Shown here: one piece after another, positions 39,722-56,345 of the stretch
Numbering within the stretch: the stretch's first letter is position 1
Layout: the number at the start of each line of letters is the position of its first letter
Virus record (IMG/VR): IMGVR_UViG_3300021963_000022
DNA length: 64,000 nt
Direction: 5' to 3' (one strand)
DNA from: a virus
Taxonomy: Duplodnaviria; Caudoviricetes
Made by a program: the position numbers and the translations under genes
The notes under the pieces: model-generated
Database searches by the model: none
Told to the model about the DNA's origin: nothing
Seen by the model: only the letters and a program-made list of their open reading frames with translations

Positions 39722-39773
39722 TTAAATTTAATTAGGTAACTGTACTACTATCTAAATACTTTTAGGAGTATGT

Positions 39774-40079
39774 ATGGACACCAAACAATTATTGACTGAA
39801 GTTAAAGCACGGTTTAATCACAACTTAGCTAAAGAATATCTCAAAGACAAATACGAAAGCAAACTAATATTTGCTGAACAAGGTGGGTTGTGGAAAGCAT
39901 CTACTGACCTGTTAACTTTTCTAAATTCTTCAACAGATGAAACACTTATACTACTTGATAGTTACCAAAATCCAGTAAAAGTTACACGCATCACCATATT
40001 AGCCAAAACTAAAGAAGTATATAATACTGTTATGTTTGATTGGTTAGCTGAATGGAAACAATTAGAAAGTAAAAGATGA
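39774..40079 (+). CDS. Hypothetical protein
   Basis: CTAAATA late motif and AGGAG RBS upstream; ATGA overlap with the next gene. Confidence 0.65.
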   Translation: MDTKQLLTEVKARFNHNLAKEYLKDKYESKLIFAEQGGLWKASTDLLTFLNSSTDETLILLDSYQNPVKVTRITILAKTKEVYNTVMFDWLAEWKQLESKR

Positions 40080-40867
40080 AGGGAGCTGTGTTATTTGCTT
40101 TCAACAATGAAACTACTGATTACGTTGAAATGGCAATCTTTACGGCTAAACGAGTTAATAGGTTCTTGAACTTACCGGTAACGTTAATAACTGATAGCAC
40201 CACTGACTTAACCAAATATGATTACACATTTGATAAAATAGTACACGTTGAAAGTGTTAGAGATAATAAACGAAACCATAGTACTTGGGTGAACAAAGGT
40301 AGATATCAAGCATTTGAACTTAGTCCATATGATGAGACATTAGTATTGGATGTTGACTACGTAGTCAACAGTGATCGTTTACTAAAAACGTTTGACATAT
40401 ATGATAACTTTATGTGTCATAAAGAAATTAACTTTCTGATGGCACCTAGTGACACACAAGAAAGAGTGGGCTACTCGGGAATAGATAGTGTGTGGGCAAC
40501 CACACTCACCTTTAATAAATCCAAATATGCAGAGCACATTTTTAATTGTGTAAAAATGGTACAAGATAACTACCAACACTATGTTCAATTGCACGGTATT
40601 ACTTTACCTTACTATAGAAATGATTATGCGTTTGCGATTGCATTACGTATTGTAAATGGGCACATAGATAACCAAAGATCATTCATGCCATGGAAGTTAT
40701 TACATGTTGGTCCTGGAACGCACGTGTACAAAGAATCAGATACTGAATACACCTTATTGCATGATACAATGAAGAATAACAAACTGAAGAAAGAATATAT
40801 TACAATCAAAGACTTAGACTTTCATATGCTAAACAAAAACAACTTTGCGGAGATTATTCATGAATAA
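40076..40867 (+). CDS. GT-A fold glycosyltransferase-like protein (GT8-like)
   Basis: SPYDETLVLDVDY (DxD), YRNDYAFAIA. Confidence 0.6.
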   Translation: MKGAVLFAFNNETTDYVEMAIFTAKRVNRFLNLPVTLITDSTTDLTKYDYTFDKIVHVESVRDNKRNHSTWVNKGRYQAFELSPYDETLVLDVDYVVNSDRLLKTFDIYDNFMCHKEINFLMAPSDTQERVGYSGIDSVWATTLTFNKSKYAEHIFNCVKMVQDNYQHYVQLHGITLPYYRNDYAFAIALRIVNGHIDNQRSFMPWKLLHVGPGTHVYKESDTEYTLLHDTMKNNKLKKEYITIKDLDFHMLNKNNFAEIIHE

Positions 40868-41657
40868 AGGTTATGTTATATTAGCACAAAACACGCATGA
40901 GATAGACTATGTAGGATGTGCAGAAGCTTTAGCATTAAGTATAAAAAAAGCAATGCCCGAATCTAATATAACGTTGATTAGTGATAATCAAAGCGATTGT
41001 TCAGCCTTCGATAACATTGTTGCATTACCGTACGGAGATTTAGCACCAACTAGTAATTGGAAATTAATCAATGACTGGCAAGTATACGAAGCAAGCCCAT
41101 ATGACTATACAATCAAGTTAGAAGCTGATATGATTGTACCTAGTAATATTGACTATTATTGGGATGCCTTTAAGGATCGTGATTTAGTTGTATCAACTGA
41201 CATTCGAAACTACAGGGGAGACATTGTAAAAGATGTGTACTATCGACAGTTTATTATCAACAACAATTTACCTAACTGTTATAACGCACTTACGTATTTC
41301 AGAAAAAGTGAATTGGCAAAGCAATTCTTTGAACTTGTAAAAGATATTTTTAAAAACTGGGAACAATATAAACTAATACTAAAATGCAAGTCAACCGAAG
41401 AAGTATCTACTGATTGGGCTTATAGTATAGCATGTCATATACTGGGTATTGAAAATACAACTATGAATTCTTATGACAAGTTTACTATGGTTCATATGAA
41501 GCAAATGATTAATGACTTAGCAACTAATGATTGGACACAAGAACTAGTAACTGAGTTTACAGAGAATGGATTTAGAATTAACACCTTTGTACAAAAGCAC
41601 CCTTTTCACTATCATGTTAAGGATTTTAATAAAGTAGTGAAAAAGAATGTCAGATGA
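40860..41657 (+). CDS. GT-A fold glycosyltransferase-like protein, paralogue of 40076
   Basis: Start MNKGYV at 40860; SPYDYTIKLEADM, STDWAYSIA. Confidence 0.6.
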   Translation: MNKGYVILAQNTHEIDYVGCAEALALSIKKAMPESNITLISDNQSDCSAFDNIVALPYGDLAPTSNWKLINDWQVYEASPYDYTIKLEADMIVPSNIDYYWDAFKDRDLVVSTDIRNYRGDIVKDVYYRQFIINNNLPNCYNALTYFRKSELAKQFFELVKDIFKNWEQYKLILKCKSTEEVSTDWAYSIACHILGIENTTMNSYDKFTMVHMKQMINDLATNDWTQELVTEFTENGFRINTFVQKHPFHYHVKDFNKVVKKNVR

Positions 41658-42912
41658 ATATAGATTATACTACGATGAATATGGGTATCCTATAACTTAT
41701 GTATGTGTAGTTGATTCTATAGAGCCAACTAACATCAATGGAAAATATATAGTTGTAGACCATTTTGACTTCCTATGCAAGAATCATAGTATAAAAGTTA
41801 TTAACGGAAAAATAGTTAGTTTAGAAGAAGCTACAGCACCGCGCAAATTCATTAAGCACAGATCAGGTATAAAATGTGCAAAACAGGACATATCTATTGT
41901 AGTAGATGATGATTACAACAACATAATAAGATGGGGAATAAATGATATGACAGATAACGTAATAGACGCAGATGATATAATTGATATAGCAGACTTAGAT
42001 TGTGTCTATCTCAGCTATGACGAACCACAAAAAGAAGAATTCTGGTTAAAGATTAAAAACATGGTGCCTTGGGCTAAACGTGTTGATGGCATTAAAGGCA
42101 GTGACGCCGCACACAAAGCCGCAGGTGAAGCAAGTGACACCGAACGTTTTATCTTAATTGATGGTGATAACATGCCGAATGAATCTTTCTTCAATATGCA
42201 ATTAGACTTTTCAGACAAAGATCCAATCTATAAACAAGCACAGTTCAGATGGAGAGCAATCAATAGTATTAACGGCTTGCGATACGGCAATGGTGGAATG
42301 AGTTCATGGACAAAAACATATGTACGTGAAATGCAAACACACGAACACAGCGACGGCAATGATACAACTACAGTTGATTTCTGTTTGGATTCTTCTGATA
42401 ACTTATACTGGGCAATGTACGATTGCTATAGTACAACTTATCCAAATTACTCACCATTTCAAGCATGGAGAGCAGGCTTTCGTGAAGGTGTTAAGATGTG
42501 TTTAGCTGGTGGCAAGAGACCTAGTGTAGACGAGTTCAAACAAAGTGTAGCTAGTAGAAACTTCAATAATTTAACCATATGGCATAACATTGGTCGTGAC
42601 GTAGAGAACGGTGAATGGGCTATATACGGAGCACGATTAGGTACATACATGACTATGCTTACAGAATGGGATCCAAAGAATGTTCAATGGTTTGATAATT
42701 ATACTGTACTATGGGAAGAACATATAAATAGAGATCCAGACCGTGAGTCAGCATTGCTCGGAGCCGCATTACACGATAAGCTAAGCCTGCCGATGCTTCA
42801 TTTTGATGGGTCACAGAGTAAATTTTTTAAACGTCATTATAACGCAGACAAACACAATCTAGGTCCTCTAGTTCGTGAGATGGATGTAATTCGTAGAATA
42901 GAAGGATGGTAA
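41647..42912 (+). CDS. Fusion: ~100-aa small domain plus GT-A-like glycosyltransferase domain
   Basis: N-terminus matches 38423; from M at 41947: DCVYLSYDEP, HKAAG, FILIDGDN (DxD), YGNGG, AWRAGFREGVK. Confidence 0.65.
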   Translation: MSDEYRLYYDEYGYPITYVCVVDSIEPTNINGKYIVVDHFDFLCKNHSIKVINGKIVSLEEATAPRKFIKHRSGIKCAKQDISIVVDDDYNNIIRWGINDMTDNVIDADDIIDIADLDCVYLSYDEPQKEEFWLKIKNMVPWAKRVDGIKGSDAAHKAAGEASDTERFILIDGDNMPNESFFNMQLDFSDKDPIYKQAQFRWRAINSINGLRYGNGGMSSWTKTYVREMQTHEHSDGNDTTTVDFCLDSSDNLYWAMYDCYSTTYPNYSPFQAWRAGFREGVKMCLAGGKRPSVDEFKQSVASRNFNNLTIWHNIGRDVENGEWAIYGARLGTYMTMLTEWDPKNVQWFDNYTVLWEEHINRDPDRESALLGAALHDKLSLPMLHFDGSQSKFFKRHYNADKHNLGPLVREMDVIRRIEGW

Positions 42913-44291
42913 TGTCAGATAATCATATAGACAAAGTTCATAAAGAGATTAACGAAATTAGTCCTAGTTTCTGTGTAGCTAAGTGGAAGCAAGTAACAAT
43001 GCATCTGCAAAATGGTCACACACATAGCTGTCATCACCCGTCATCACATCATGTGCCTGTAAGTGAAATTAAAATTAACTCTACAGCATTACACAATAGT
43101 GAATATAAAAAGCAACAACGAAAGTTAATGCTTGAAGGTGTTCGCCCGCGGGAATGTGATTACTGTTGGAATGTAGAAGACACTAATCAACATTATAGTG
43201 ATAGAACTTTTAAGAGTGCGGATCAATCATGGGCATATCCTTATATTGATGAGATTGTTAACAAGCCTTGGAACGCTAACATTGATCCTAGCTACGTAGA
43301 AGTAAGCTTTGGTAACGTATGTAACTTCAAATGCAGTTACTGTGCTCCTCAGATAAGCAGTCAGTGGATGGAAGAAGTTGAAAGATACGGTGCATACCCG
43401 ACAAGCAATCAATTCAACAATTTAGAATGGTTAAAAGCTACTGATGCAATGCCTATTCCAAATAACAAAGAGAATCCTTATGTTGATGCTTTTTGGAATT
43501 GGTTTCCTGATATGTACAAGAGTCTTAAGTACTTTAGAATCACAGGTGGTGAGCCATTACTAAACAAAAACACATTCAAAGTATTAGATTACATTATTGA
43601 AAATCCTAACACAGATTTGGAAGTTGCAATCAATACTAATATGAATGCACCAGACGAGTTGATGGATAAGTTTATTGAAAAAGTAAAAATCATTATCAAT
43701 GAGAAGAAACTAAAACGATTTAAATTGTTTACTTCTGCTGAAGCACACGGTAAAGCAAGCGAGTATATTCGTTATGGTATGAATTACAATGACTGGATTG
43801 CTAACATGCACAAGATGTATCAAGCTATCCCGGGCATTCAGTTTACTATAATGAGTACATATAACTTGTTAAGCGTCACTACATATACTGACTTCTTAAA
43901 AGATATACTATCATTCAAACAACAGTATGGTACTACAACACACTATCCAATGCTATTAGATATACCTTATCTACGCTATCCTTTGCACCAAAGTGTGTTT
44001 ATCATGGAACAAGAACAATTGGACCTAATGCAAAGTCAAATAGATTTTATGGATAGTAATGTAGTTGCTAACAATATGTCACATCAAGCATTTTATCCAG
44101 AAGAAGTTGAACGTCTTAAACGTATTCAAACATTGATTAAATCTCATATTGATGATCCTAAGCCGTGGTTTGATACCAGTCGTAAAGACTTCATCATATT
44201 TGTTAATGAACATGACCGTAGAAGAAAAACAAACTTTTTAAAGACATTCCCTAAACTTACTAACATGTACAACAGGTGGTCTAAACTATGA
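42912..44291 (+). CDS. Radical SAM protein with N-terminal Cys/His cluster
   Basis: CNFKCSYC, TGGEPL, N-terminal FC...HSCHH...CDYC; start at 42912. Confidence 0.9.
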   Translation: MSDNHIDKVHKEINEISPSFCVAKWKQVTMHLQNGHTHSCHHPSSHHVPVSEIKINSTALHNSEYKKQQRKLMLEGVRPRECDYCWNVEDTNQHYSDRTFKSADQSWAYPYIDEIVNKPWNANIDPSYVEVSFGNVCNFKCSYCAPQISSQWMEEVERYGAYPTSNQFNNLEWLKATDAMPIPNNKENPYVDAFWNWFPDMYKSLKYFRITGGEPLLNKNTFKVLDYIIENPNTDLEVAINTNMNAPDELMDKFIEKVKIIINEKKLKRFKLFTSAEAHGKASEYIRYGMNYNDWIANMHKMYQAIPGIQFTIMSTYNLLSVTTYTDFLKDILSFKQQYGTTTHYPMLLDIPYLRYPLHQSVFIMEQEQLDLMQSQIDFMDSNVVANNMSHQAFYPEEVERLKRIQTLIKSHIDDPKPWFDTSRKDFIIFVNEHDRRRKTNFLKTFPKLTNMYNRWSKL

Positions 44292-45103
44292 AGATAGCAG
44301 TATTGATAAGTGGGGAGTATAGAACATTTGGACATTGTAGAAGAACAATGGATTTTCTGTATGATCCACGTGTTGATATATACGTAAGTACATGGGATAG
44401 CTCATCTTACGTTAGCCCTAAAATTAATCTAGACCATACAGAATTGGTTAATTATGACCGTGTTGTTAATGATTTACACAAAGATGCTACAGTACTAATT
44501 GAACCACAAAGTTTAATTAAGGAAGTAAAATATAGCACTAAGATGATGCATCGTTGGATATCAGGGTTTAATCTTATAAAAGAAAGCAATAATCACTATG
44601 ACTATGTGATTGTAATGCGACCTGATTTGTTCTTTAATTACAGTTGCCCAATCGACTTAAACAGTATAGAACAATATGAAAACTCATTAGGAGTAGCATG
44701 GGCTACTGACGAATACATTACTAATAGAAAACTACAAGATGTTTTGTTTCTTTCAACCTATAGCAATATGAATAAGTTGTTTAGTACATTAGACATTAAC
44801 AAATGGATTATCGGTGGTGAGGGTGATTGGCATACGTGGTGGTTTAATCATTGCAATAATACATTACCAATTGCGTATGCTAAAAATTTTAGTAATTGCA
44901 CTTTCTATCGCTATCTAACTGATAACAATAACCCTACTTTTGATGATGTAATGAATGCACAACATAATTGGCGTGATTTACAGTTACTCAATCAGATAGA
45001 TATTATGGGAAGAGATGCACTCAAAACTGCATGGCCGGAGAATGTGATTCAAAATGCAGAAGATAAGTGGAACAACGGGTATTTTAATAAGTTTATCAAA
45101 TGA
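44288..45103 (+). CDS. Putative glycosyltransferase-like protein (IAVLISGEYR family)
   Basis: KIAVLISGEYRTF, YVSTWD, YDYVIVMRPD. Confidence 0.55.
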   Translation: MKIAVLISGEYRTFGHCRRTMDFLYDPRVDIYVSTWDSSSYVSPKINLDHTELVNYDRVVNDLHKDATVLIEPQSLIKEVKYSTKMMHRWISGFNLIKESNNHYDYVIVMRPDLFFNYSCPIDLNSIEQYENSLGVAWATDEYITNRKLQDVLFLSTYSNMNKLFSTLDINKWIIGGEGDWHTWWFNHCNNTLPIAYAKNFSNCTFYRYLTDNNNPTFDDVMNAQHNWRDLQLLNQIDIMGRDALKTAWPENVIQNAEDKWNNGYFNKFIK

Positions 45104-46533
45104 ACATAGCAGTGTTAATTTCTGGTGAGTACAGAGAATTTGAAATAGCGCATCCAAGTTGGGAATTCGATAAATGCGGCAAAGTGGATTACTATTTTTC
45201 AACATGGGCAGAGACCTCTGAGGTTAACGATAACTTAAACATCAATATACATGAGACTGTAACAATCGATAGGATACAAAAATATTTACCGATCACTGAC
45301 TACGTTATCTCTCAGCCACTGTATTACTTATATAACCAGCAAAAAATGATTAATCGTTGGCATGAAGGTTTAAAACTAATACATAAAAGTAACAAAACAT
45401 ACGATGTAATCATTCTTATACGACCTGACTTATATATTGAATATAGTGATTTGTTACAAGACTTCATATCCAAAATGAACTCTAATACCATGTATTGTTA
45501 CGGTGACTTTCACCGTAATGGAATTGGTAACGTCATGGATCAAATATTCATCGGAGATAGCAATACGATTCTAAAGTTGTTAGACATAGATTATACAACC
45601 CCTAAGTTAATTGAGACAACTAACATACATGAATTTTTAGCAGAACATTTTAATCGATTGTTTAACTCTATCCAATTAATACCGTTTAATAAGTTCTACA
45701 TAGCTAGAAGTAATAGTAGAGGTTTAGCTTCATACTCATATGAAATTATAAAAACAAACTCCGAAATATGGTATCAGCAAAAACATCTACGAGAAACTGT
45801 TGTAACTAAATTTAAAGGGTTTTCTAAATCACACGTGATGTTGATAGAAAATTCATTCAGCAAACGCTTTGTTAGAAAACGCAAAAACGTTCAACGTAAC
45901 CATGACAAGATGAAAGAGTTGGCATCACATGGCTTCAACGTACCTAAAATTATAAACATGCGTAACGATACGCTAGATATGGAATACATATCGGGTATTG
46001 ATATGAAAACGTTTATATTACGGCACGATGTAAAGCTGTTAGCAAACTCTATCATAGAAACAGTTGATAGGTTTAAGTACACCAGTAAGTCTAAAAACTA
46101 TGCAAACACATATCAAGAACAGTTAGCATTGATTGATTGTAGTGAGTTGCCATTTACATCCGATGAATTATATATTAGATTACCAAAAGACTTACCACAA
46201 AGTCTATGTCATGGTGATTTCACATTAGAGAATCTACTATACAGTAATGGTAAGTTTTATATGATAGATACTGTAACCGGCCCATATGATAGTTGGGTAT
46301 TTGATATTGCTAAGATGAGACAAGACATAGATGGTCACTGGTTTCTTAGAGACGGTAAGACTGAACTTACGGTTCAATTAAAGATTTTACACGATATATT
46401 AGAATCAGCTTTTGCTATTGCATTTGACAATAATTTATACATATTGATGCTACTCAGAGTGTACAGACATTGTAAAGTAGGTACAACAGAGCATAGATTG
46501 ATATTAGAGGAGATAAAGAGATTATGGAAGTAA
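45100..46533 (+). CDS. Fusion: IAVLISGEYR domain plus APH/choline-kinase-like phosphotransferase
   Basis: N-half paralogous to 44288; C-half FKGFSKS, CHGDFTLENLL, FYMID, DIAKMRQD. Confidence 0.75.
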   Translation: MNIAVLISGEYREFEIAHPSWEFDKCGKVDYYFSTWAETSEVNDNLNINIHETVTIDRIQKYLPITDYVISQPLYYLYNQQKMINRWHEGLKLIHKSNKTYDVIILIRPDLYIEYSDLLQDFISKMNSNTMYCYGDFHRNGIGNVMDQIFIGDSNTILKLLDIDYTTPKLIETTNIHEFLAEHFNRLFNSIQLIPFNKFYIARSNSRGLASYSYEIIKTNSEIWYQQKHLRETVVTKFKGFSKSHVMLIENSFSKRFVRKRKNVQRNHDKMKELASHGFNVPKIINMRNDTLDMEYISGIDMKTFILRHDVKLLANSIIETVDRFKYTSKSKNYANTYQEQLALIDCSELPFTSDELYIRLPKDLPQSLCHGDFTLENLLYSNGKFYMIDTVTGPYDSWVFDIAKMRQDIDGHWFLRDGKTELTVQLKILHDILESAFAIAFDNNLYILMLLRVYRHCKVGTTEHRLILEEIKRLWK

Positions 46534-47201
46534 TTGTACCTGCCGCCGGATTATCTACCCGTTTTCCGGGTACTGTACCAAAATACTTGCTTACTGATAA
46601 CAATGGTAAGATAATGTTACACAATGCTATAGAACCTTATATAGGTAAATATAATGTTACTGTTGGTATACTTAAACAACATGATGAGTTGTACAACAGC
46701 GGAGATATTATCAGAGAGCTAGGTGTTAACGTTGTAGTGTTACCTGAAGTAACTAGGGGTCCAGCTGATACTGTATATCAGATTATAAATCTAGCACAAA
46801 TACATATTGACCATTCTTTTTTCATTAAAGATTGTGATAGTTACTTTGACCATGAAGTTTCAGATGGTAATTATATTTGCATATCTACGGTAAGTGAGCA
46901 TGATGTTCTATATAAGATAGCAAACAAGAGTTTTGTTATAGCAAATGAACATGGTATAGTTCAAAGTATAGTAGAAAAGTCTATTGTTAGTAATGAGTTT
47001 TGTGTGGGCGGATATAAGTTTAATAGAATTTATGATTTTGTATCAGCGTATGAAAAGTTGATACATAGTATGACAAATGAATTCTTTGTCAGTCATATCA
47101 TTCAGTATAATATTAGTAATGGTAAAACATTCTTAACTAAGAAAGTTACTGAGTATGTTGATGTAGGAACTATTAAAGAATGGCAAGAACAAAATGTTTA
47201 A
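46524..47201 (+). CDS. Sugar-phosphate nucleotidyltransferase-like protein
   Basis: IVPAAGLSTRF...PKYLL, TRGPADT, IKDCDS, C-terminal DVGT. Confidence 0.8.
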   Translation: MEVIVPAAGLSTRFPGTVPKYLLTDNNGKIMLHNAIEPYIGKYNVTVGILKQHDELYNSGDIIRELGVNVVVLPEVTRGPADTVYQIINLAQIHIDHSFFIKDCDSYFDHEVSDGNYICISTVSEHDVLYKIANKSFVIANEHGIVQSIVEKSIVSNEFCVGGYKFNRIYDFVSAYEKLIHSMTNEFFVSHIIQYNISNGKTFLTKKVTEYVDVGTIKEWQEQNV

Positions 47202-47295
47202 TCTTATTAAGAATATATACTTAAAGATGGTACGAGAGTACAAATATCGCAAAAGGTTAAAGGCAATGAAGAAACGTGATCCCTTTATTTATTAA
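47194..47295 (+). CDS. Small basic peptide (33 aa, ends KRDPFIY), not in ORF track
   Basis: MFNLIKNIYLKMVREYKYRKRLKAMKKRDPFIY; overlaps the upstream stop and ends 3 nt before the carbamoyltransferase. Confidence 0.65.
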   Translation: MFNLIKNIYLKMVREYKYRKRLKAMKKRDPFIY

Positions 47296-47298
47296 ACC

Positions 47299-48795: not shown

Positions 48796-48803
48796 GTATC
48801 TTT

Positions 48804-51500
48804 ATGCTACGAGATGTGTTTTATTACGGGGACAAACCCAATGTACATCCCCGAGAACGTTACGCCAAAGACTTTGATACAGCTAAACAACTAGCTACAA
48901 CTGAACACTTTTGGATTGTTAACGAGTTCTGTGATTACAAAAATATTGATTGGGATTTTGATTTTGAATTCTTACCCGATGAAGATGTATGGGCAACAGA
49001 CCATATCAATATCTGGCCTAGTCAATGGCAGAGTGATAGTGGTACATGGTTATGCTCAGTAAAAGCTGACAATGTAAAAATATATCGCACAGACGTAGAA
49101 CCTGTACATAGAAAAAACGTCATTTCAAGACACTGGGTGAATACTGAAAAGTTTGATACTACTCAGTTTGACTATAGCTGGCATCCTGATCCCGATGAAC
49201 CACCGTTCATATTTCAATTTGGCACTCAATGGGCAAAAACACATGGTCCTAAATACGTATCAGATGGTGCAACTAATATTAAGTATATAACTGAGCCTAA
49301 TGCTAAAATTAAAGCAGATATGACACATTGGGAAAATGCTGTAATTAAAGATTTTGATTATAGCTGGCATCCAGACGCAACTAGTCCACCGTACATATAT
49401 CAGTTTAATACGTTGCTTGATCTAGACCCCGGCCCTAGATATGTTGTACCGGGTCATAATAATAAAGTAGTTAACATTGACCGTGATATAAGCAGTCTTA
49501 ATTTCCCGGTATACTATATTCAATCATCATTAGATGAGTTGATTGAACAGCACCCTGATGAAGTCTTCTGGGCATTGCGTGATAACATTGACTATGATAA
49601 GTTTGATTTTACATGGCGTCCGACTATTGCTAACTTTAAGTATATAAATGTGTTTGGTTCTACTGATAGTGAATCGACACAAAGTTACTTTGTCAATACT
49701 AAAATGATAAAGAAAGGATACAAAGATTTTAACTATATTGAGAACAAACAGTTAGATGATGAGTATCTCGCTAGGTTGTTTAAACCAATTGATATGTTCT
49801 ACATTGATAGAGGAAACCCGCAATCACAAACACAATTTAATGCACTTAAAGAACGTTTCCCTAATATTAAAAAGACACGTTACATAGGATCATGGACTGA
49901 TACTATTGCAAGATGTATTAATCATTGTAGCACAGAACTATTTTGGGTATTGAATAGCGAACTAGATTACAGCGAGTTTGACTTCATATATTATCCTAAT
50001 CCATGGCAAATGCGAATGATACATATATTTGGAACACAATGGACTCATTGGGGTAACACATATGTTATTAATAAAGAACTCTTTTTAGAGAGTACAAAGT
50101 ATGTTAAGGTCATTGAACATTTAAACGGTCTTAACTTTGTAAAAACTAAACGGGCTAAAGCATCAAATGTATTATATGATATTGTTTACATTGACCATGG
50201 CAATACTGATATGTCACACTTAGTAGAGCAGGGTAAGATAGTTGTTAAGTATAGAAATAGTTATATTGACACATTCAAAGACTTGTTACCGTTGCTCCCT
50301 GAAAAGAAAGAACATTATGTTTGGGTAGCTAGTTCTATATGTGATTACAGTTCATTTGATTTCACATACATATGTGATCCTTTTACTAGAGAACAACTAC
50401 ATGTATTCCCTAGTGATAGTCAGAAGTTTGGTGATACGTTCTTAATCAATGTTAATAAACTGCGTGAAGTTATTAATGATGTAGAGTTACTTGAAGATAC
50501 TGAAGTAAATTATAACAAGCAACAGCAAGTATCTAGATTACCTGCACCAACATTCACTAATACAGATTCACATGCAAATAGTATTAATGTTGACTATAAC
50601 TTTCCCTATGCTGTGTTTATGACTGCTGATAACATTGTAGAGTACAAAGATACTGAAACAATCAATCTATGGAGTAATAAAGATAAGAACATATTGATTA
50701 CACACGAAGGCGGGACACGCATCATTGTACCCAAAGAAGCTAGTAAAACAGTTACTAATGAATTGTATGAATATCCATATATAAAAACTATATCAAAGAC
50801 TAATACTAGTAAGCCATTAGATATTGTATTCTTTAGTAACGGTGAAACTGTTGCCGATCAAAACTATGAACATCTGTTGAATGTTACTAAAGGTATGCCC
50901 AACAATGTTAAACGCATTGATAAAGTATCTGGTCGTGTAGCTAGTCAACATGCGGCAGCTAACATATCAGATACTAATTGGTATTTTCTTGTTAATGCTA
51001 AGTTGAAAGTGTCAGATAAATTTGATTGGCAATGGCAACCTGATAGATTACAAGAACCAAAACATTATATATTCAACGCATTGAACCCAGTTAATCAATT
51101 AGAGTACGGTCATATGGCTATTGTTGCTAACAACAAGAAACTTACATTGAATACAGAAGTAAATGGGTTAGACTTTACTTTGGCTAGTAAGCATCAGTCG
51201 CTAAATATTCTGTCAGGTGTTGCTCTGTTCAATACTAGTGAGTTAGAAACATGGCGTACCGCATTCCGTGAGACACTAAAGATTAAAGACAGTGTAGTAA
51301 AGAACAATGACACCGCAAGCAAATATAGATTGCGTAATTGGTTAAACGTTGCAGAGGGCGATTATGCCCAAACATGTATACAAGGTGCTAATGATGCTGT
51401 AAAGTATTATGAATCAGTAGATGGTAACATGGACAAGTTAATGCTCAGTTATGATTGGGCATGGTTGAGTGAATATTATAAACAGCTTTATGGAAAATAA
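48804..51500 (+). CDS. Multi-repeat GT-A-like protein
   Basis: About five tandem degenerate domains related to the 41947-42912 domain; last has YGHMA and TWRTAFRE; TAAGTA 5 nt before the ATG. Confidence 0.6.
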   Translation: MLRDVFYYGDKPNVHPRERYAKDFDTAKQLATTEHFWIVNEFCDYKNIDWDFDFEFLPDEDVWATDHINIWPSQWQSDSGTWLCSVKADNVKIYRTDVEPVHRKNVISRHWVNTEKFDTTQFDYSWHPDPDEPPFIFQFGTQWAKTHGPKYVSDGATNIKYITEPNAKIKADMTHWENAVIKDFDYSWHPDATSPPYIYQFNTLLDLDPGPRYVVPGHNNKVVNIDRDISSLNFPVYYIQSSLDELIEQHPDEVFWALRDNIDYDKFDFTWRPTIANFKYINVFGSTDSESTQSYFVNTKMIKKGYKDFNYIENKQLDDEYLARLFKPIDMFYIDRGNPQSQTQFNALKERFPNIKKTRYIGSWTDTIARCINHCSTELFWVLNSELDYSEFDFIYYPNPWQMRMIHIFGTQWTHWGNTYVINKELFLESTKYVKVIEHLNGLNFVKTKRAKASNVLYDIVYIDHGNTDMSHLVEQGKIVVKYRNSYIDTFKDLLPLLPEKKEHYVWVASSICDYSSFDFTYICDPFTREQLHVFPSDSQKFGDTFLINVNKLREVINDVELLEDTEVNYNKQQQVSRLPAPTFTNTDSHANSINVDYNFPYAVFMTADNIVEYKDTETINLWSNKDKNILITHEGGTRIIVPKEASKTVTNELYEYPYIKTISKTNTSKPLDIVFFSNGETVADQNYEHLLNVTKGMPNNVKRIDKVSGRVASQHAAANISDTNWYFLVNAKLKVSDKFDWQWQPDRLQEPKHYIFNALNPVNQLEYGHMAIVANNKKLTLNTEVNGLDFTLASKHQSLNILSGVALFNTSELETWRTAFRETLKIKDSVVKNNDTASKYRLRNWLNVAEGDYAQTCIQGANDAVKYYESVDGNMDKLMLSYDWAWLSEYYKQLYGK

Positions 51501-51502
51501 GA

Positions 51503-52111
51503 ATGCCGTATAAAACAGATATATTGGGATGGATGGTTGAGTCCGAGTTAAAAGTCTTAGAGACTATTGCAAAACAAGTTCCTGTCAATGGAAATATTGT
51601 AGAAGTAGGATCAATGTTTGGTAGAAGTGCTGTTTGCTTTGCAATGTCAGCAGATCCCAGTGTTACCATCAATTGTATTGACTATTTTCCTACTGATATG
51701 AGACAACAGCATGGTTGTTCAGATGAGGATTCAATTAAAAACAGTTTCCCTATTGCTGATAAACTGTATAATGTTGAGCAAGACTTTATAGAGAATACCA
51801 AAGAGTTTAAGAATATCAATATGATAAAGGGTGATAGTCCGCATATATTAGTATATACTCCTGATCCTATTGATTTGTTTTTCTTAGATGCAGGGCATGC
51901 CAATCCTAATGATTGGGACAATTTATGTCACTTCATACCCTATATGAAATTGAATGGTATTATTGCAGGACATGATTATCACCCTACACAGTTCCCTGAT
52001 GTATGTGAGAATGTTAGACGATTAGAAGAATTATTTGATATTAAAGCGGAATTATATCCCGGCTCAAGTATTTGGTCTATAAAAGTGACTAAATTAATAA
52101 ATAAAGTATGA
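51503..52111 (+). CDS. Class I SAM-dependent methyltransferase (Methyltransf_24-like)
   Basis: IVEVGSMFGRSA, IDLFFLDAGH, IAGHDY. Confidence 0.85.
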   Translation: MPYKTDILGWMVESELKVLETIAKQVPVNGNIVEVGSMFGRSAVCFAMSADPSVTINCIDYFPTDMRQQHGCSDEDSIKNSFPIADKLYNVEQDFIENTKEFKNINMIKGDSPHILVYTPDPIDLFFLDAGHANPNDWDNLCHFIPYMKLNGIIAGHDYHPTQFPDVCENVRRLEELFDIKAELYPGSSIWSIKVTKLINKV

Positions 52112-52203
52112 AAACTTTTGTTTTGTTAGTTATAGGAGTCTGTATTGCTGTATGTATATACTGGCTAATGGACTGGCAAAGTCACCATGAAGATGGTGAG
52201 TAA
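52108..52203 (+). CDS. Putative single-TM peptide (31 aa)
   Basis: MKTFVLLVIGVCIAVCIYWLMDWQSHHEDGE; TAAATA at 52098-52103 just upstream; overlaps the tmRNA acceptor region. Confidence 0.5.
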   Translation: MKTFVLLVIGVCIAVCIYWLMDWQSHHEDGE

Positions 52204-52552
52204 AGTTATTGCTGTACGAAGCAAAGAGAAAAGTGTCTTGGAAGGGGGTGCGAATCCCCCCAGGTCCACCATAAGGAAGTTTATGAATATTGAATGGTAT
52301 CACGTATTGTTATGTTTAGCAGTTCCGCTAAACTACTTTTACTGGATAGTATTACATAGATTCTTTATGAAGGGCCTGATATAGATTCGACAGGGCAACA
52401 AGTAAATTAGTGGACAGCTCGGCAAAGCAGAAGCCGTTAGGGTTGGGGGAACTCGGCCGTAGAAGCAAAAAAGTAATCGCAAACGATTCACAATTCCTAT
52501 TGGCAGCAAACGCCTAATAGCGAGGTAGTTATACCTTGTAACCAAAAATAGC
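52182..52552 (+). ncRNA. ssrA: Circularly permuted (two-piece) tmRNA
   Basis: T-arm GGGGG-TGCGAAT-CCCCC plus CAGGTCC-ACCA (ends 52271) lies upstream of 5' acceptor strand GGGCCTG-ATATAGATTCGAC (starts 52372), with a G3-U70 pair. Resume codon GCA at 52479 gives ANDSQFLLAANA*. Outer ends approximate. Confidence 0.9.
52283..52384 (+). CDS. Hydrophobic 33-aa ORF inside the tmRNA intervening sequence
   Basis: AAGGAAG RBS then MNIEWYHVLLCLAVPLNYFYWIVLHRFFMKGLI*. Confidence 0.5.
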   Translation: MNIEWYHVLLCLAVPLNYFYWIVLHRFFMKGLI

Positions 52553-52576
52553 ATAGGGACTTCGGTCCCTATTTTT
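52553..52576 (+). terminator. Intrinsic terminator after tmRNA, probably bidirectional
   Basis: ATAGGGAC-TTCG-GTCCCTAT-TTTT with AAAAA upstream. Confidence 0.85.
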
Positions 52577-52688
52577 CTGGGTATTGCCATGTCCAAGTAC
52601 CGTCTTTTCTGTATAAGCGTTTTCTTCCTGTGACGGTAGCAGATAATTTTCCTGCGCTTTTTCTTCCATTTTCGGCAGCAGTAGGCAA
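52569..52688 (-). pseudogene. Probable C-terminal remnant of a homing-endonuclease-like gene
   Basis: LPTAAENGRKSAGKLSATVTGRKRLYRKDGTWTWQYPEK*; no RBS, in-frame stop just upstream; resemblance recalled from memory only. Confidence 0.4.
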
Positions 52689-52721
52689 AGAGGATTATGA
52701 AACAATTTAATTGTTTCACGG

Positions 52722-52745
52722 AAAGGTCACTAAGGTGACCTTTTA
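52722..52745 (+). terminator. Intrinsic terminator-like hairpin
   Basis: AAAGGTCAC-TAAG-GTGACCTTT followed by TATTTT. Confidence 0.65.
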
Positions 52746-52747
52746 TT

Positions 52748-52776
52748 TTGGCTTTAACTACACAATGATATATAAT
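52748..52776 (+). promoter_or_regulatory. Sigma70-type promoter TTGGCT-17-TATAAT, leaderless start at 52783
   Basis: -35 at 52748-52753, -10 at 52771-52776, ATG 6 nt downstream. Confidence 0.7.
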
Positions 52777-52782
52777 CATACT

Positions 52783-53085
52783 ATGAGCAATGAACTAGCA
52801 AAATATATAAATTCTCGTCGCCGTTTCCGTGATGAAACTGCAGTCAAAAAACAAGTTAAGATTGCAAAAGCGCATGGTCTTACTAATAAAGATAAAGCTA
52901 TAAAAGAACCACATCGTTTAGCTAAACATCATGCAATGGATTGTGGTCAACCAGGATGTATGCTTTGCGGTAACCCTCGCAAAACACATAAAGATAAACT
53001 AACTGCACAAGAAAAACGTATGTATCAGGATGTAGATAAAACTAACGATAAACATAGCAATGGAATTAAACCGGAAGATATATGA
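52783..53085 (+). CDS. Basic Cys/His-containing hypothetical protein
   Basis: HRLAKHHAMDCGQPGCMLCGNPRK; start set at 52783 from promoter spacing. Confidence 0.75.
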   Translation: MSNELAKYINSRRRFRDETAVKKQVKIAKAHGLTNKDKAIKEPHRLAKHHAMDCGQPGCMLCGNPRKTHKDKLTAQEKRMYQDVDKTNDKHSNGIKPEDI

Positions 53086-53477
53086 CAACAGTATTTGTTA
53101 ACGGAACATTTGACATTCTTCATTTAGGTCATATCGGCCTACTTGAACACGCTAAAAGCTTAGGTGATGAACTTATTGTCGGTATCGATAGTGATGCTAG
53201 AGTAAAAGTATTGAAGGGTGAAAATAGACCCATCAATACTGAAAGAGAACGAGGATTAATGCTACTTGCAACCAAGTATGTAGACAAGGTATTTGTATTT
53301 GATACAGATGTAGAACTAACTGAATTAGTTAGTACATGTGATATTATGGTTAAAGGCAGTGATTATGTAGGTAAACGTATCATTGGTAGCGAAGTATGCC
53401 CTCAGCTTGTATTTTTTGATCGAATAGATGAATACTCAACCACACAAAAAATTCAAAATATTATTGATCGGGGATAA
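53082..53477 (+). CDS. Heptose-1-phosphate nucleotidyltransferase (HldE/RfaE domain II, HldC-like)
   Basis: NGTFDILHLGH, VGIDSD...KGENRPIN, KGSDY, STT. Confidence 0.85.
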   Translation: MTTVFVNGTFDILHLGHIGLLEHAKSLGDELIVGIDSDARVKVLKGENRPINTERERGLMLLATKYVDKVFVFDTDVELTELVSTCDIMVKGSDYVGKRIIGSEVCPQLVFFDRIDEYSTTQKIQNIIDRG

Positions 53478-54192
53478 TTGTTTAGATGTATATCAATTTG
53501 GAATAGTTGATAGACTAAGCCCCGAAGCTCCTGTACCTATATTTGTTCCTCTTTACAAAGAAGAACGCAGTGGTATGGTTGGCAACGTATATAACAACTT
53601 AGTTAACTTAGATTGTGACGTAACATTATATTCAGGTAGCACAAGTGTTAAGACCAGAATGATTGATGCTAGAAGCAAACAACAAATCATTCGGGTAGAT
53701 AATGATATAATATCTGAACCATTGACGATTGATGATATCAATATTGAGCATGATGCTATTGTAATCAGTGACTACAATAAAGGGTTAGTATCATATGAAT
53801 TGATTGAAAACATATTAGCAGTAGCTAAATGCCCCGTGTTCATTGATACTAAATTAACTGATTTAGAACGTATGCAAGGTGCATGGGTTAAAATTAACAA
53901 CCTAGAATACAGTAGGATTAAAAGTGAATGTTCAGGTCTAATCGTAACTAATGGTGCACGTGGTGCTAGTGTAATATATCACGATATACAATGTCCTGCT
54001 ACTAAAGTAGAAGTTGTTGACGTTACTGGTGCGGGAGATACTTTCTTATCAGCATTAACATATCAATATCTAGTTACTAAAGATATAAAATCAGCAGTTG
54101 AATTTGCCATCAATGCATCAAGTATAACTGTACAACACTTGGGCGTTTATGCACCAACACTAAATGAAATAGAAATAGAGGGACTTAGATGA
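53428..54192 (+). CDS. PfkB-family heptose-7-phosphate kinase (HldE/RfaE domain I, HldA-like)
   Basis: RLSPEAPVP, KTR...QQIIRVD, SDYNKG, DVTGAGDT. Confidence 0.85.
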   Translation: MNTQPHKKFKILLIGDNCLDVYQFGIVDRLSPEAPVPIFVPLYKEERSGMVGNVYNNLVNLDCDVTLYSGSTSVKTRMIDARSKQQIIRVDNDIISEPLTIDDINIEHDAIVISDYNKGLVSYELIENILAVAKCPVFIDTKLTDLERMQGAWVKINNLEYSRIKSECSGLIVTNGARGASVIYHDIQCPATKVEVVDVTGAGDTFLSALTYQYLVTKDIKSAVEFAINASSITVQHLGVYAPTLNEIEIEGLR

Positions 54193-54545
54193 GATTAGAA
54201 GGGTTTGTAGAAAAAGGTTGGGGACATGAATTTATCTTTGCTACTAATGATAAGTATTGCGGTAAAATTCTATCCTTCAATAAAGATGCAAAATTCAGTA
54301 TGCATTTTCATGGTGAAAAAGATGAAACATGGTATGTGTTAACTGGGGAATTTATCGTAAGACACATTGATACTACTAATGCAGAAATTAATGAAACAAA
54401 GTTAACTACAGGGGATACATGGCGTAATCTTCCTTTATTCCCACATCAAATTATATGCATAGAAGAAGGTGTTATAGTTGAAGTTAGTACACCGGATAGT
54501 GTAGAAGATAATTACAGAGTCATGCCCGGAGATAGTCAAAAATGA
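54189..54545 (+). CDS. Cupin-fold sugar isomerase-like protein
   Basis: KGWGHE, SMHFHGEKDETW, PH, EVSTPD...DNYR. Confidence 0.75.
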   Translation: MRLEGFVEKGWGHEFIFATNDKYCGKILSFNKDAKFSMHFHGEKDETWYVLTGEFIVRHIDTTNAEINETKLTTGDTWRNLPLFPHQIICIEEGVIVEVSTPDSVEDNYRVMPGDSQK

Positions 54546-54835
54546 AATACATAGTAGATATAGATGGTACAATATGTACTGTAACCAACGGTGATTATTC
54601 AAACGCGGAGCCTTATCTATCACGCATAGCACATTTTAATATGTTATATGATGCGGGAAATGAGATACATTATTGGACAGCACGTGGTGCTAATACTGGA
54701 AAGAATTGGGATGATATTACATTAATGCAGTTAGCCGATTGGGGCGCAAAATACACCACTGCTAAAACAGGTAAGCCTGCATATGATATATGGATTGATG
54801 ATAAAGCATTTAACATAGGAACATATTTCAAATGA
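54542..54835 (+). CDS. Small HAD phosphatase (capsule-biosynthesis EcbF/BcbF-like)
   Basis: VDIDGTIC, WTARG, KP..D..IDDKA. Confidence 0.8.
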   Translation: MKYIVDIDGTICTVTNGDYSNAEPYLSRIAHFNMLYDAGNEIHYWTARGANTGKNWDDITLMQLADWGAKYTTAKTGKPAYDIWIDDKAFNIGTYFK

Positions 54836-55584
54836 AAATATTATTAACAGGATATAAAGGATTCATTGGCTCTAACATGCTCAAAATGTTAGACGGTCAT
54901 GAAGTTGTAACATATAACTGGGGTGATGCATTACCTTCAGTTGCAGGATTAGATTGGGTCGTCCACATGGGCGCTATCAGTAGCACTATTGAACGCAACA
55001 TTGAAAAGATTATGTTACAGAATTACGATTTTAGCTGTTGGCTATTGAATGAGTGCATTGCAAACAACGTAAACTTTCAGTATAGTAGTTCAGCAAGCAT
55101 ATATGGATTGAGTACAGAGTTTGTTGAAACTAGTCCAGTCGATCCTCGCACACCTTATGCTTGGACAAAGTACTTGTTTGAACGTTTTGCTAATAGAGAA
55201 TGCAATATACGTATACAGGGTTTTAGATACTTCAATGTGTATGGTTCAGGTGAAGAAGAAAAGGGAGATCAAGCTAGTCCTTTCTATAAGTTTAAAAAAC
55301 AAGCAGAAGAAAACGGATTTGTTAAATTATTTGAAAACAGTCAGCACTATAGACGAGACTTTGTCCCAGTAAAACAAGTATGTCAAACACATATTGATTT
55401 CTTTAATGTAAAAGAATCAGGTGTATGGAACGTAGGTACAGGAACACCTATGAGTTTTTATGATGTCGCTAAACAATTTACTGATAACATCATAGAGATA
55501 CCCTTACCTGATATACTAAAAGATAGTTATCAAGAATTCACATGTGCAGATATGACTAAAACCAATACATCATTGGGTAGATAA
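54832..55584 (+). CDS. hldD: ADP-L-glycero-D-manno-heptose 6-epimerase-like SDR
   Basis: TGYKGFIG, HMGAISST, QYSSSASIYG, YAWTK, FRYFNVYG, RRDFV. Confidence 0.8.
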   Translation: MKILLTGYKGFIGSNMLKMLDGHEVVTYNWGDALPSVAGLDWVVHMGAISSTIERNIEKIMLQNYDFSCWLLNECIANNVNFQYSSSASIYGLSTEFVETSPVDPRTPYAWTKYLFERFANRECNIRIQGFRYFNVYGSGEEEKGDQASPFYKFKKQAEENGFVKLFENSQHYRRDFVPVKQVCQTHIDFFNVKESGVWNVGTGTPMSFYDVAKQFTDNIIEIPLPDILKDSYQEFTCADMTKTNTSLGR

Positions 55585-55838
55585 TGTCAATCACTACATC
55601 ATTAGATTGGGAAAAAGAGAGTGACAGGCTTATGAATTTTATGTCTAGTTCCGGTTACAACCCTGATCTTAAAAAAGTGTACAATAACATTAATGGTATG
55701 ATAACTGACTTGAGCAAACTAGAGGTTGAAGCACGTAGAACGCACAACAACCTCAAAGTAGAAGAATGTTTAATAAAAATTAATGAAGCAATTGATAGAT
55801 TAGAAAAATTACTATTGATTGCTAAATTAATTAGCTAG
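55584..55838 (+). CDS. Hypothetical coiled-coil protein
   Basis: TAATG overlap with the upstream gene; 84 aa. Confidence 0.65.
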   Translation: MSITTSLDWEKESDRLMNFMSSSGYNPDLKKVYNNINGMITDLSKLEVEARRTHNNLKVEECLIKINEAIDRLEKLLLIAKLIS

Positions 55839-56330
55839 TGGATCAATAGGCCAAGTAACGTTTTCACTTGGTGTATCTTTTGGATACGTATTAGTTAAAT
55901 CCCTAAGCTGTTGTTTATATGTTAACACAGCCATATATTGTTCATCTGTTAGTTTATGAGGAATATTCAGTAATGTTTCTTCTTGGTGTCTTTGTACTAT
56001 CCAGTCTAATTCGTATAATTTTTGAACCCTACTCATTTCTAAAGTAATTACAGGAACCGCAGCCTGAATCAGTTGTTCTAAGATAGGGATTAAACGCTGT
56101 TTGTTTTCAACAAACCAATTAATTTCCTCTAATTCTTGACCCGCAAACCCCTCTGGACCAACACGCTCTACATGATAAATATTTCTATCAGGTTCGTAGG
56201 ATAGTAAGAGGGTAGAATCAGCATAGGGATAATTAGTATCAGCAATAAATTTTGCTGAATTATCCCAATGATATTCTTTATTTTCAAACTTTATATAAAA
56301 ATGAGAGTTATAAAAGTTTAGGCTAGCCAT
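55827..56330 (-). CDS. Tail fibre assembly chaperone-like protein
   Basis: C-terminal DWIVQRH...YKQQLRDLT...VTWP; downstream of the fibre genes; start set at MASL (56330). Confidence 0.7.
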   Translation of the reverse strand: MASLNFYNSHFYIKFENKEYHWDNSAKFIADTNYPYADSTLLLSYEPDRNIYHVERVGPEGFAGQELEEINWFVENKQRLIPILEQLIQAAVPVITLEMSRVQKLYELDWIVQRHQEETLLNIPHKLTDEQYMAVLTYKQQLRDLTNTYPKDTPSENVTWPIDPLAN

Positions 56331-56345
56331 ATTGTTAATCATCAT

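Follow-up and report, generated by a model that had tools for sequence, protein, structure and literature searches.

A two-unit sugar-modification gene island in the fibre region of an uncultured jumbo myovirus, and its possible role in glycosylating a phage-made polypeptide

We analysed the fibre region in a 64,000-nucleotide stretch of viral DNA (IMG/VR record IMGVR_UViG_3300021963_000022; the window hereafter), where a run of genes for sugar-activating, sugar-transferring and sugar-decorating enzymes lies between fibre genes. The original prediction had taken this island as a single unit (positions 40076-55584). The island stretch is in fact made up of two transcription units, unit 1 (39753-52111) and unit 2 (52783-55838), split at 52179-52776 by a transfer-messenger RNA (tmRNA) gene, a terminator and a promoter that had been overlooked. 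The features are given below with strand and supporting matches (ORF, open reading frame; aa, amino acids; SAM, S-adenosylmethionine; AF2 pLDDT, AlphaFold2 predicted local distance difference test).

39753-39759, + strand: late-promoter-like box TAAATAC, 21 nt 5' of the start codon (ATG) that opens the operon
39774-40079, + strand: 101-aa ORF, first in the operon, function unassigned; orthologs 55-59% identical at the same position in the related loci L081 and L073
40076-40867, + strand: DxD nucleotide-sugar-transferase-like protein a ("GT8-like"); more than 2000 homologs, D94 invariant and D92 near-invariant
40845-41657, + strand: paralog b of the DxD transferase; 25% identity to 40076-40867, E 1e-10
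41647-42912, + strand: fusion protein of an N-terminal domain X (residues 1-109), a GT-A-fold transferase part containing DGD, and a C-terminal half that is helical
42906-44291, + strand: radical SAM enzyme with an N-terminal twitch-type Cys cluster; PF04055, NF033640 330 bits (cut-off 170)
44288-45103, + strand: WavE/DUF7796-like protein; 38 homologs only, embedding lead to DUF7796/WavE
45100-46533, + strand: second WavE-like domain fused to an APH-fold kinase; PF01636 32.6 bits (cut-off 23.2), residues 259-407
46524-47201, + strand: sugar-phosphate nucleotidyltransferase-like protein; phrog_3980 1e-18, GlmU-like 8e-5
47194-47295, + strand: gene for a 33-aa basic peptide ending in DPFIY; overlaps the nucleotidyltransferase stop and ends 3 nt before the carbamoyltransferase
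47299-48795, + strand: NodU/CmcH-family O-carbamoyltransferase; PF02543 101 bits (cut-off 24), PF16861 157 bits (cut-off 27)
48804-51500, + strand: repeat protein of degenerate GT-A-like modules, 898 aa; AF2 pLDDT 84.6
51503-52111, + strand: class I SAM methyltransferase (Methyltransf_24); PF13578 46 bits
52179-52608, + strand: permuted (two-piece) tmRNA gene (ARAGORN), tag peptide ANDSQFLLAANA; outside the pathway, it interrupts the island
52721-52744, + strand: strong intrinsic-terminator-like hairpin; consensus-type match only
52748-52776, + strand: sigma70-like promoter, TTGGCT-17-TATAAT; consensus match only
52783-53085, + strand: 100-aa basic Cys-containing ORF (phrog_4499), first of unit 2
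53082-53477, + strand: HldC/RfaE-domain-II-like nucleotidyltransferase; TIGR02199 110 bits (cut-off 181.5), PF01467 60 bits
53428-54192, + strand: HldA/RfaE-domain-I-like PfkB kinase, short (254 aa); TIGR02198 138 bits (cut-off 345), PF00294 63 bits
54189-54545, + strand: small cupin, WbuC-like (weak); phrog_7851 2e-37, TIGR04366 22.8 bits (cut-off 42)
54542-54835, + strand: small HAD-type phosphatase-like protein; phrog_1238 6e-23, EcbF/BcbF 25 bits (cut-off 162)
54832-55584, + strand: HldD-like short-chain epimerase, 250 aa, N-terminal GxxGxxG; TIGR02197 194 bits (cut-off 274.6), PF01370 82 bits
36234-39721, + strand: upstream flank with a fibre/spike-like protein, two paralogous proteins of 317 and 332 aa and a free domain X (38423-38722)
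55827-63598, - strand: convergent downstream flank with a tail-fibre-assembly-like protein, a 375-aa protein and a 2041-aa Ser/Thr/Asn-rich fibre that has its own TAAATAC box

The box at the head of unit 1 belongs to a set found in the window. TAAATAC occurs 21-29 nt before five start codons (0.165 expected, P ~9e-7), those of two baseplate genes, one fibre-like gene, the 2041-aa fibre and the 101-aa ORF at 39774, and ahead of the latter it is kept at the same place in L081 and L073. In addition, the window carries a gene for a gp55-type late sigma factor (7883-8785). The T4 late consensus TATAAATA was without enrichment, with 6 matches against 13.5 expected. Three TAAATA/TAAGTA boxes had been proposed; the one before 39774 holds, being enriched and conserved in two relatives, whereas the TAAGTA boxes before 48804 and 52108 found no support. 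The 101-aa ORF matched no family in the Pfam, PHROG and NCBIfam profile searches. Throughout 39774-52111 neighbouring genes overlap or adjoin, and no strong-stem terminator-like site was found on the + strand within this interval. At its end, a strongly hydrophobic 31-aa ORF (52108-52203, + strand) has its ATG overlapping the methyltransferase stop and runs into the predicted start of the tmRNA gene. The permuted form of this tmRNA hints at a host among Alpha- or Betaproteobacteria or cyanobacteria.

Regarding unit 2, the ATG of its 100-aa ORF (52783) lies 6 nt past the -10 hexamer of the sigma70-like promoter, which suggests that a leaderless transcript may head the heptose-type module (52748-52785). 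It should be noted that the sigma70 scan as a whole gave fewer matches than the shuffle expectation.

Unit 1 opens, after the 101-aa ORF, with a transferase/radical SAM cassette (40076-44291). The first two enzymes are true paralogs with a conserved D-x-D; their description as GT8-like genes stands only as an embedding lead (GT8/Nucleotid_trans clusters with 20% GT8 members), as GT8 (PF01501) gave no Pfam match even at E<=10. The profile of this family matched no sequence in the PDB. The listed start of 40845-41657 is a TTG, with an ATG five codons further in. In the third gene (41647-42912, 421 aa), residues 110-421 were modelled by AF2 at pLDDT 93. The GT-A fold corresponds to the first ~160 residues of this model (VIA Z 9.4 to B4GALNT1, root-mean-square deviation 3.1, 143 aligned); other GT-A matches were STIV A197 (Z 8.5) and SunS (Z 8.1), with further GT-A enzymes at Z 7.4-8.8. 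Against the model, nucleotidyltransferases that share this fold reach about Z 7, and the fold alone leaves the reaction unfixed. The top Foldseek match was A64R of the chlorovirus PBCV-1 (E 4.5e-4), a likeness at the level of the fold only (TM 0.24-0.33). The helical C-terminal half had no structural match, and the Atlas fold search with the model returned only unnamed viral clusters. The DGD lies at residues 172-174, and both Asp are at least 90% conserved among 60 diverse homologs. GT2 (PF00535) was not matched by the protein of the window and was matched weakly by 11 of the 60 homologs (best E 0.019). Searches of PDB sequences with the GT-A and repeat proteins and with the GT8-like and WavE-like profiles yielded no usable match; the best was GmaR (E 0.068), over the DxD region. 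The ~100-aa domain X occurs twice in the window, as the free ORF at 38423-38722 and as the N-terminus encoded by 41647-41973 (40% identical); in relatives it is a separate 109-aa gene 5' of the GT-A gene. The radical SAM enzyme has its CxxxCxxC motif as CNFKCSYC at residues 139-146, with further Cys at 23, 42, 84 and 87.

This cassette is widely kept. The order DxD pair, optional domain X, GT-A and radical SAM was present in 18/18 phage-type loci retrieved by the GT-A profile alone, always with the pair directly 5' of the GT-A gene. A 335-kb relative and RsoM2USA keep the order giant structural protein, fibre-region genes, DxD pair, domain X, GT-A and radical SAM, and the position of the cassette behind a giant structural protein and fibre-like genes is the same in L081, L073 and RsoM2USA. 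In RsoM2USA the neighbouring ORF356, ORF359 and ORF361 are virion proteins by proteomics. The stand-alone form of the GT-A enzyme (~317 aa) accounts for more than 8000 clusters made at 90% identity, at ~80% identity, and for 1154 clusters at 50%. As to the giant structural-type gene of the window, it is a 5367-aa ORF (19309-35412, + strand) directly 3' of the baseplate wedge gene, and its counterparts have 6344 aa in L081 and 2541 aa in RsoM2USA (ORF361, the virion protein mentioned above).

A second conserved block is centred on the carbamoyltransferase, which has an N-terminal Kae1-like and a C-terminal YrdC-like domain (phrog_1601 at 1.5e-92). Since both NodU/CmcH domains score high, O-carbamoylation of a hydroxyl group via carbamoyl phosphate is expected. 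The enzyme is not a NodU ortholog, as it reached 124.5 bits with the NodU equivalog model (NF041651) against the 1000 needed. A search with it found 104 IMG/VR loci at 48-80% identity, 80 of which were kept for the counts that follow. A link of the kinase of 45100-46533 with the carbamoyltransferase, of the Kae1-Bud32 type, was considered and dropped, because the Bud32/RIO matches (~30 bits over 33 residues) reflect a generic likeness of kinase folds.

Between the nucleotidyltransferase and the carbamoyltransferase, the first reading of the sequence had missed the 33-aa ORF. Small ORFs with [KR][KR]DPFIY(K) were found within 3 kb 5' of the carbamoyltransferase in 75/80 loci, directly adjacent in more than half. 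Over 64 distinct nucleotide versions, the entropies at codon positions 1, 2 and 3 were 0.53, 0.32 and 1.32, and the 10 codons left out of sequence selection showed 231 synonymous and 112 non-synonymous changes. The ORF thus codes for protein, is under selection at the protein level and is no less conserved than the adjoining enzyme. In a crude motif scan, the peptide was found neither beside the carbamoyltransferases of RsoM2USA, C48C1 and P-SSM2 nor in the cellular loci with the GT-A module.

Downstream, the 898-aa repeat protein contains at least two GT-A-fold domains (residues 327-458 and 666-898). Its C-terminal domain (230 residues) is homologous to the GT-A enzyme (hhalign 98.7%) and has lost the DxD, with VNAK in its place, also across orthologs. 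The latter range from 438 to 2709 aa through gain and loss of modules, and they lie 3' of the carbamoyltransferase in 62/80 loci. In addition, radical SAM genes occur upstream of the carbamoyltransferase in 56/80 loci, often as 4-6 tandem SPASM/twitch paralogs, and the GT-A enzyme is present wherever the flank extends to it. The conserved core comprises the DxD pair, the DGD GT-A enzyme, the N-twitch radical SAM enzyme, the 33-aa peptide, the NodU-family carbamoyltransferase and the DxD-less repeat protein.

The remaining enzymes of the island (44288-47201, 51503-52111 and the heptose genes of unit 2) show the opposite pattern: the 80 loci contain practically none of the genes for the kinase, the nucleotidyltransferase, the methyltransferase, the WavE-like proteins and the heptose enzymes, which represent strain-specific cargo. 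No homolog of the methyltransferase was found at these loci, and the heptose module is missing from at least 78 of them. The N-terminus of the 45100-46533 product is 39% identical to the 44288-45103 product; neither of these WavE-like domains had a Pfam match at E<=10, and DUF7796 was matched by 1/37 family members of 44288-45103.

Most enzyme assignments made from the letters alone were borne out by these searches. The radical SAM enzyme, the carbamoyltransferase, the methyltransferase, the DxD GT-A fusion with its ~100-aa N-terminal domain, the multi-repeat glycosyltransferase-like protein, the APH-like kinase (C-terminal half of 45100-46533) and the two domains recognised by an IAVLISGEYR motif, which start both 44288-45103 and 45100-46533, were all recovered. 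The nucleotidyltransferase is a weaker case: beside the PHROG match, NTP_transf_3 reached 18 bits, below its cut-off of 27.

The heptose enzymes of unit 2 require more caution. ADP-heptose models are the top matches of all three (rfaE domains I and II and the epimerase), as had been predicted, at 40-70% of the equivalog cut-offs. GmhA, the SIS-fold sedoheptulose-7-phosphate isomerase, is lacking: no ORF scanned at 36-58 kb had a SIS-family match. Compared with the ADP-heptose pathway, the module is alike in that its split kinase, adenylyltransferase and epimerase take the three NCBIfam models as best matches, and in a small HAD protein in the place of GmhB; it differs in the sub-equivalog scores, in proteins 20-25% shorter, in the missing GmhA in the window and in a cupin instead. 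The sugar made by unit 2 may be other than heptose. The earlier idea of ADP-heptose feeding an Aah/TibC-type protein heptosylation was not sustained, as no GT-B/BAHT-like or GT9-like heptosyltransferase matched in Pfam, NCBIfam or PHROG in the island and the heptose module is a separate unit.

Several observations concern the soundness of this arrangement and the source of the DNA. The window belongs to a large myovirus with a T4-type core, encoding gp46/47-like nuclease subunits and baseplate hub and wedge proteins; the wedge protein is ~33% identical to those of the jumbo phages GAP32, Munch, Atu_ph07, SCTP-2 and others. The phage is an uncultured freshwater jumbo myovirus, kin of RsoM2USA, XacN1, GAP32 and Rak2. 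A megablast search with the island DNA, run on 50,697 phage records, gave no DNA-level match to a cultured phage. Near-identical island DNA was found in 20 public runs from 11 studies (89-99% of sampled 31-mers), which come from lakes, rivers, estuaries and drinking water. One independent contig covers 38000-52275 and a second one 52246-57900; the join at 52246-52275 is a mere overlap of the two, and the break falls at the tmRNA gene, where public contigs end because its sequence is common to other organisms. An assembly chimera was ruled out by these runs and contigs. In GC content, the island does not differ from the remainder of the window. Between freshwater populations of the phage, linked substitutions are densely clustered at 45257-45294 and 49160-49676, that is, at the junction of the WavE-like and kinase genes and in the repeat modules of the 898-aa protein, and other parts of the island are nearly invariant.

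The flanks place the island among structural genes, as had been proposed: fibre-like genes lie upstream, and the convergent 2041-aa fibre downstream is 38% Ser/Thr/Asn. This fibre has 87 N-x-S/T sequons against 65 expected (standard deviation 6.5), a real excess that stems from its repeat unit; no enzyme of an N-glycosylating type was found for them. Upstream, the 317- and 332-aa proteins are 33% identical, with the free domain X ORF between them, and a homolog of the 317-aa protein lies 5' of the cassette in 11/18 phage-type loci. A complex prediction of the 317-aa protein with the free domain X, run without controls, gave no support and carries no weight in either direction. The 410-aa protein at 36234-37466 (+ strand) has a C-terminal intramolecular-chaperone Peptidase_G2 domain (24.4 bits, cut-off 25) that resembles those of self-cleaving tail spikes and fibres.

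The GT-A family is also found in cells, in chromosomes of Bdellovibrionia, Rhodobacterales and Geminicoccaceae (30-41% identity). On a 494-kb Bdellovibrionia contig (L165, 10001-13165), the GT-A gene shares an operon with genes for a paralog of 229 aa that lacks DxD and for an N-SPASM radical SAM enzyme; two further radical SAM genes are nearby, and no polysaccharide export genes were found around it. In a Bacteriovoracaceae chromosome the GT-A gene is in a GT2 cluster with a PMT_2-type membrane transferase, and in Rhodobacterales its neighbours are GT1- and GT28-like proteins. Because cellular chromosomes carry them together, the active GT-A enzyme, its inactive-looking paralog and the radical SAM enzyme are, as judged from these sequences, an old functional unit tied to glycan chemistry. 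In the bacterial chromosome L167 (9294-10945), the GT-A enzyme likewise stands beside a DxD-less paralog and N-SPASM/twitch radical SAM genes. Contigs L085-L089 and L103 show the full phage-type cassette, with a GT-A 56-61% identical, in metagenome-assembled genomes of unrelated bacteria and archaea, labelled Polynucleobacter, Haliscomenobacter, Legionellales, Fischerella and Pacearchaeota; these are probably phage contigs that were mis-binned.

A gene set for activating, transferring and decorating sugars, a well-supported assignment, is thus located in the fibre region, its larger part behind a conserved late-type box. We favour, at a probability of roughly 45%, the late, cytoplasmic assembly of a decorated glycan on a phage-made polypeptide; gene content, folds, conservation, the promoter box and the lack of membrane segments are what was observed, and timing, donors and acceptor are what we infer. 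Unit 1, which encodes soluble proteins only, would be transcribed late from a gp55-type promoter. The APH-fold kinase, of the anomeric type, and the nucleotidyltransferase would make a nucleoside-diphosphate-activated donor in the cytoplasm, and the conserved GT-A enzyme would prime a conserved phage-made polypeptide, be it the 33-aa peptide or a protein of the fibre region. The remaining transferases would lengthen the glycan, the radical SAM enzyme would alter a sugar, and the carbamoyltransferase and the methyltransferase would cap hydroxyl groups. The DxD-less repeat protein could be a non-catalytic scaffold or a glycan-binding partner. Unit 2 would add a diverged ADP-heptose-type pathway behind its sigma70-like promoter.

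What points to a polypeptide acceptor is, in the first place, the late-type box common to fibre and baseplate genes and the fixed position in the fibre region. Furthermore, membrane and lipid-carrier machinery appears to be missing: no hydrophobic segments were found in the island proteins (maximum KD19 1.34, threshold KD19 >= 1.6), and in the Pfam searches no island protein matched a flippase, polymerase, ligase, priming phosphoglycosyl transferase or GtrB/GtrC family. The peptide is invariant as well, and the GT-A enzyme is extremely conserved; as it keeps ~80% identity over more than 8000 clusters while the cassettes between vary, it would seem to act on an invariant acceptor. Virions of the related cultured phage XacN1 are reported to have at least two glycoproteins (PMC5852040); no GT-A homolog was found in XacN1.

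Several points weigh against this proposal. The glycosylated product is deduced from genes alone, and the late reading of unit 1 would hang on a 7-nt box only. The co-occurrence of the island with the sequon-rich repeat fibre, offered earlier as a check, failed: the 2041-aa fibre was found within ~10 kb of the carbamoyltransferase in 0/80 related loci. The Bdellovibrionia module of GT-A, pseudo-glycosyltransferase and radical SAM adjoins neither a phage fibre nor a DPFIY peptide, so that the GT-A enzyme family needs neither acceptor. Besides, the GT8-like, WavE-like, rfaE/HldD-like and NodU-like families are those of lipopolysaccharide (LPS) core and capsule pathways, and published analyses take such islands as means of host-surface remodelling (PMC7029224, PMC7824862).

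That last interpretation is a strong rival, less probable than the reading we favour. According to it, nucleotide sugars (including ADP-heptose) and peripheral transferases would feed the assembly of host LPS core, O-chain or capsule, altering receptors and thereby keeping competing phages or newly released progeny from adsorbing to cells already infected or to debris. A 7-O-carbamoyl-heptose is known from the LPS core of Pseudomonas, the top family matches in the island are LPS-type enzymes, and the variability of the cassettes among relatives is like that of O-antigen loci. The sigma70-like promoter of the heptose unit would suit early expression, and the published reading was given both to the cassettes of glycosyltransferases, rfaE and radical SAM genes in the host recognition cluster (HRC) of pelagimyophages and cyanomyophages (PMC7029224) and to the sugar clusters of jumbo phages (PMC7824862). 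Against remodelling stand the lack in the island of a membrane protein, flippase, polymerase, ligase or lipid-carrier priming enzyme, the location of the larger unit behind the box of baseplate and fibre genes, and the conservation of the core GT-A enzyme (~80%), far above what is expected of enzymes that track diverse O-chains. Moreover, the heptose genes are missing from nearly all relatives.

The peptide allows two further proposals. In the first, in our opinion unlikely, the DPFIY peptide, the carbamoyltransferase, the pseudo-GT-A protein, the GT-A enzyme and the radical SAM enzyme would constitute a late, peptide-primed glycoconjugate pathway producing a strain-variable carbamoylated glycan. 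The peptide would be acceptor or precursor, and the outcome a viral product resembling glycosylated, ribosomally synthesized and post-translationally modified peptides, without a characterised counterpart and made in thousands of aquatic jumbo phages.

In the second, still less probable, the C-terminal residues of the DPFIY precursor would be remodelled by radical SAM enzymes, then glycosylated and carbamoylated, and released as a small molecule or modified peptide that serves infection and not the particle, following the logic of mycofactocin, pyrroloquinoline quinone (PQQ) or glycocins. The biosynthesis of mycofactocin does combine a peptide ending in Tyr with a radical SAM enzyme of the SPASM type, a GT2 transferase and a methyltransferase. 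Here, an invariant short peptide with a C-terminal aromatic residue adjoins tailoring enzymes, the relatives hold those 4-6 SPASM/twitch paralogs in the same operon, and the peptide S-glycosyltransferases SunS/ThuS are among the better matches of the GT-A model (Z 8.1). However, no RRE-type recognition domain or peptidase appeared among the family matches; the peptide is basic and its conserved part has no Cys, Ser or Thr; the single radical SAM gene of the window lies 3 kb away from it; the peptide stays invariant where the radical SAM arrays vary; and it was found neither in the cellular GT-A/radical SAM loci nor in the carbamoyltransferase loci of RsoM2USA, C48C1 and P-SSM2.

DNA hypermodification, in which the transferases, kinase and carbamoyltransferase would decorate phage bases against restriction, is the least likely alternative and a very improbable one: glycosyltransferases and kinases do serve base hypermodification in other phages, and the methyltransferase matches a PHROG labelled DNA methyltransferase (3e-13), but the island has no hydroxymethylase, base-modifying enzyme or T4-type GT-B glucosyltransferase, its place is the late fibre region, away from the replication genes, and the GT-A family sits in bacterial glycan clusters.

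Sugar islands in the fibre regions of aquatic myophages have been read, without experiments, as tools acting on the host surface. The invariant core, the tiny peptide, the late-type promoter and the lack of membrane machinery make the alternative proposed here, a decorated glycan that highly abundant giant phages of fresh and marine waters would build on a polypeptide of their own, testable. If it is true, virus-encoded glycosylation, described so far in giant eukaryotic viruses and mycobacteriophages, would reach a large clade of uncultured phages, and a first substrate would be provided for the uncharacterised N-twitch radical SAM family and for the GT-A family common to Bdellovibrionia and Rhodobacterales. 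Material for such tests exists, since near-clonal populations of the phage occur in drinking water, lakes and estuaries (11 studies).

Fibre-linked sugar islands as such are already described in aquatic T4-type myophages and jumbo phages. Neither the conserved core with its peptide gene nor the late box, the division into two units or the cellular GT-A/pseudo-glycosyltransferase/radical SAM module was found described in the literature searched. Zaragoza-Solas et al. 2020 (PMC7029224) described the HRC in pelagimyophages and cyanomyophages of 140-250 kb and interpreted it as modifying the host O-chain. The island in the window fits the definition of the HRC by position, variability and content: both are variable islands in the structural region of aquatic T4-type myophages, with tail-fibre genes next to glycosyltransferases, rfaE and radical SAM genes; in the HRC, GT8 is the commonest glycosyltransferase and the content differs between close relatives. 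On the other hand, that paper describes no GT-A/twitch radical SAM cassette, no pair of carbamoyltransferase and pseudo-glycosyltransferase and no DPFIY peptide, and the phage presented here is of jumbo size and related to RsoM2USA.

Iyer et al. 2021 (PMC7824862, section 3.4.10) related jumbo-phage sugar or "capsular polysaccharide modification" clusters to superinfection exclusion or to a secondary metabolite. These clusters share with the island the PfkB kinase, HIGH-type nucleotidyltransferase, cupin, HAD phosphatase, NAD epimerase and glycosyltransferase families, as well as carbamoyltransferases accompanied by O-methyltransferases; unlike in the present case, no link to a late promoter, to the fibre region or to a conserved peptide was drawn there.

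Glycosylation of virion proteins by viral enzymes is documented for the chlorovirus PBCV-1 (A64R), for the fibril clusters of Mimivirus and for the capsid and tail of mycobacteriophages (Freeman et al. 2023, as covered in PMC12582341). Those systems resemble the island in their soluble virus-encoded GT-A transferases, in genes near structural genes and in virus-made nucleotide sugars. They differ, as far as those accounts go, in having no radical SAM enzyme or carbamoyltransferase, and in the phage of the window and its clade such glycosylated proteins are a prediction. Finally, with NodU, NolO, CmcH and TobZ the carbamoyltransferase shares both domains of the family at high scores; it is set apart from them by not being a NodU ortholog and by its unique pairing with the 33-aa peptide gene and the pseudo-glycosyltransferase repeat protein.

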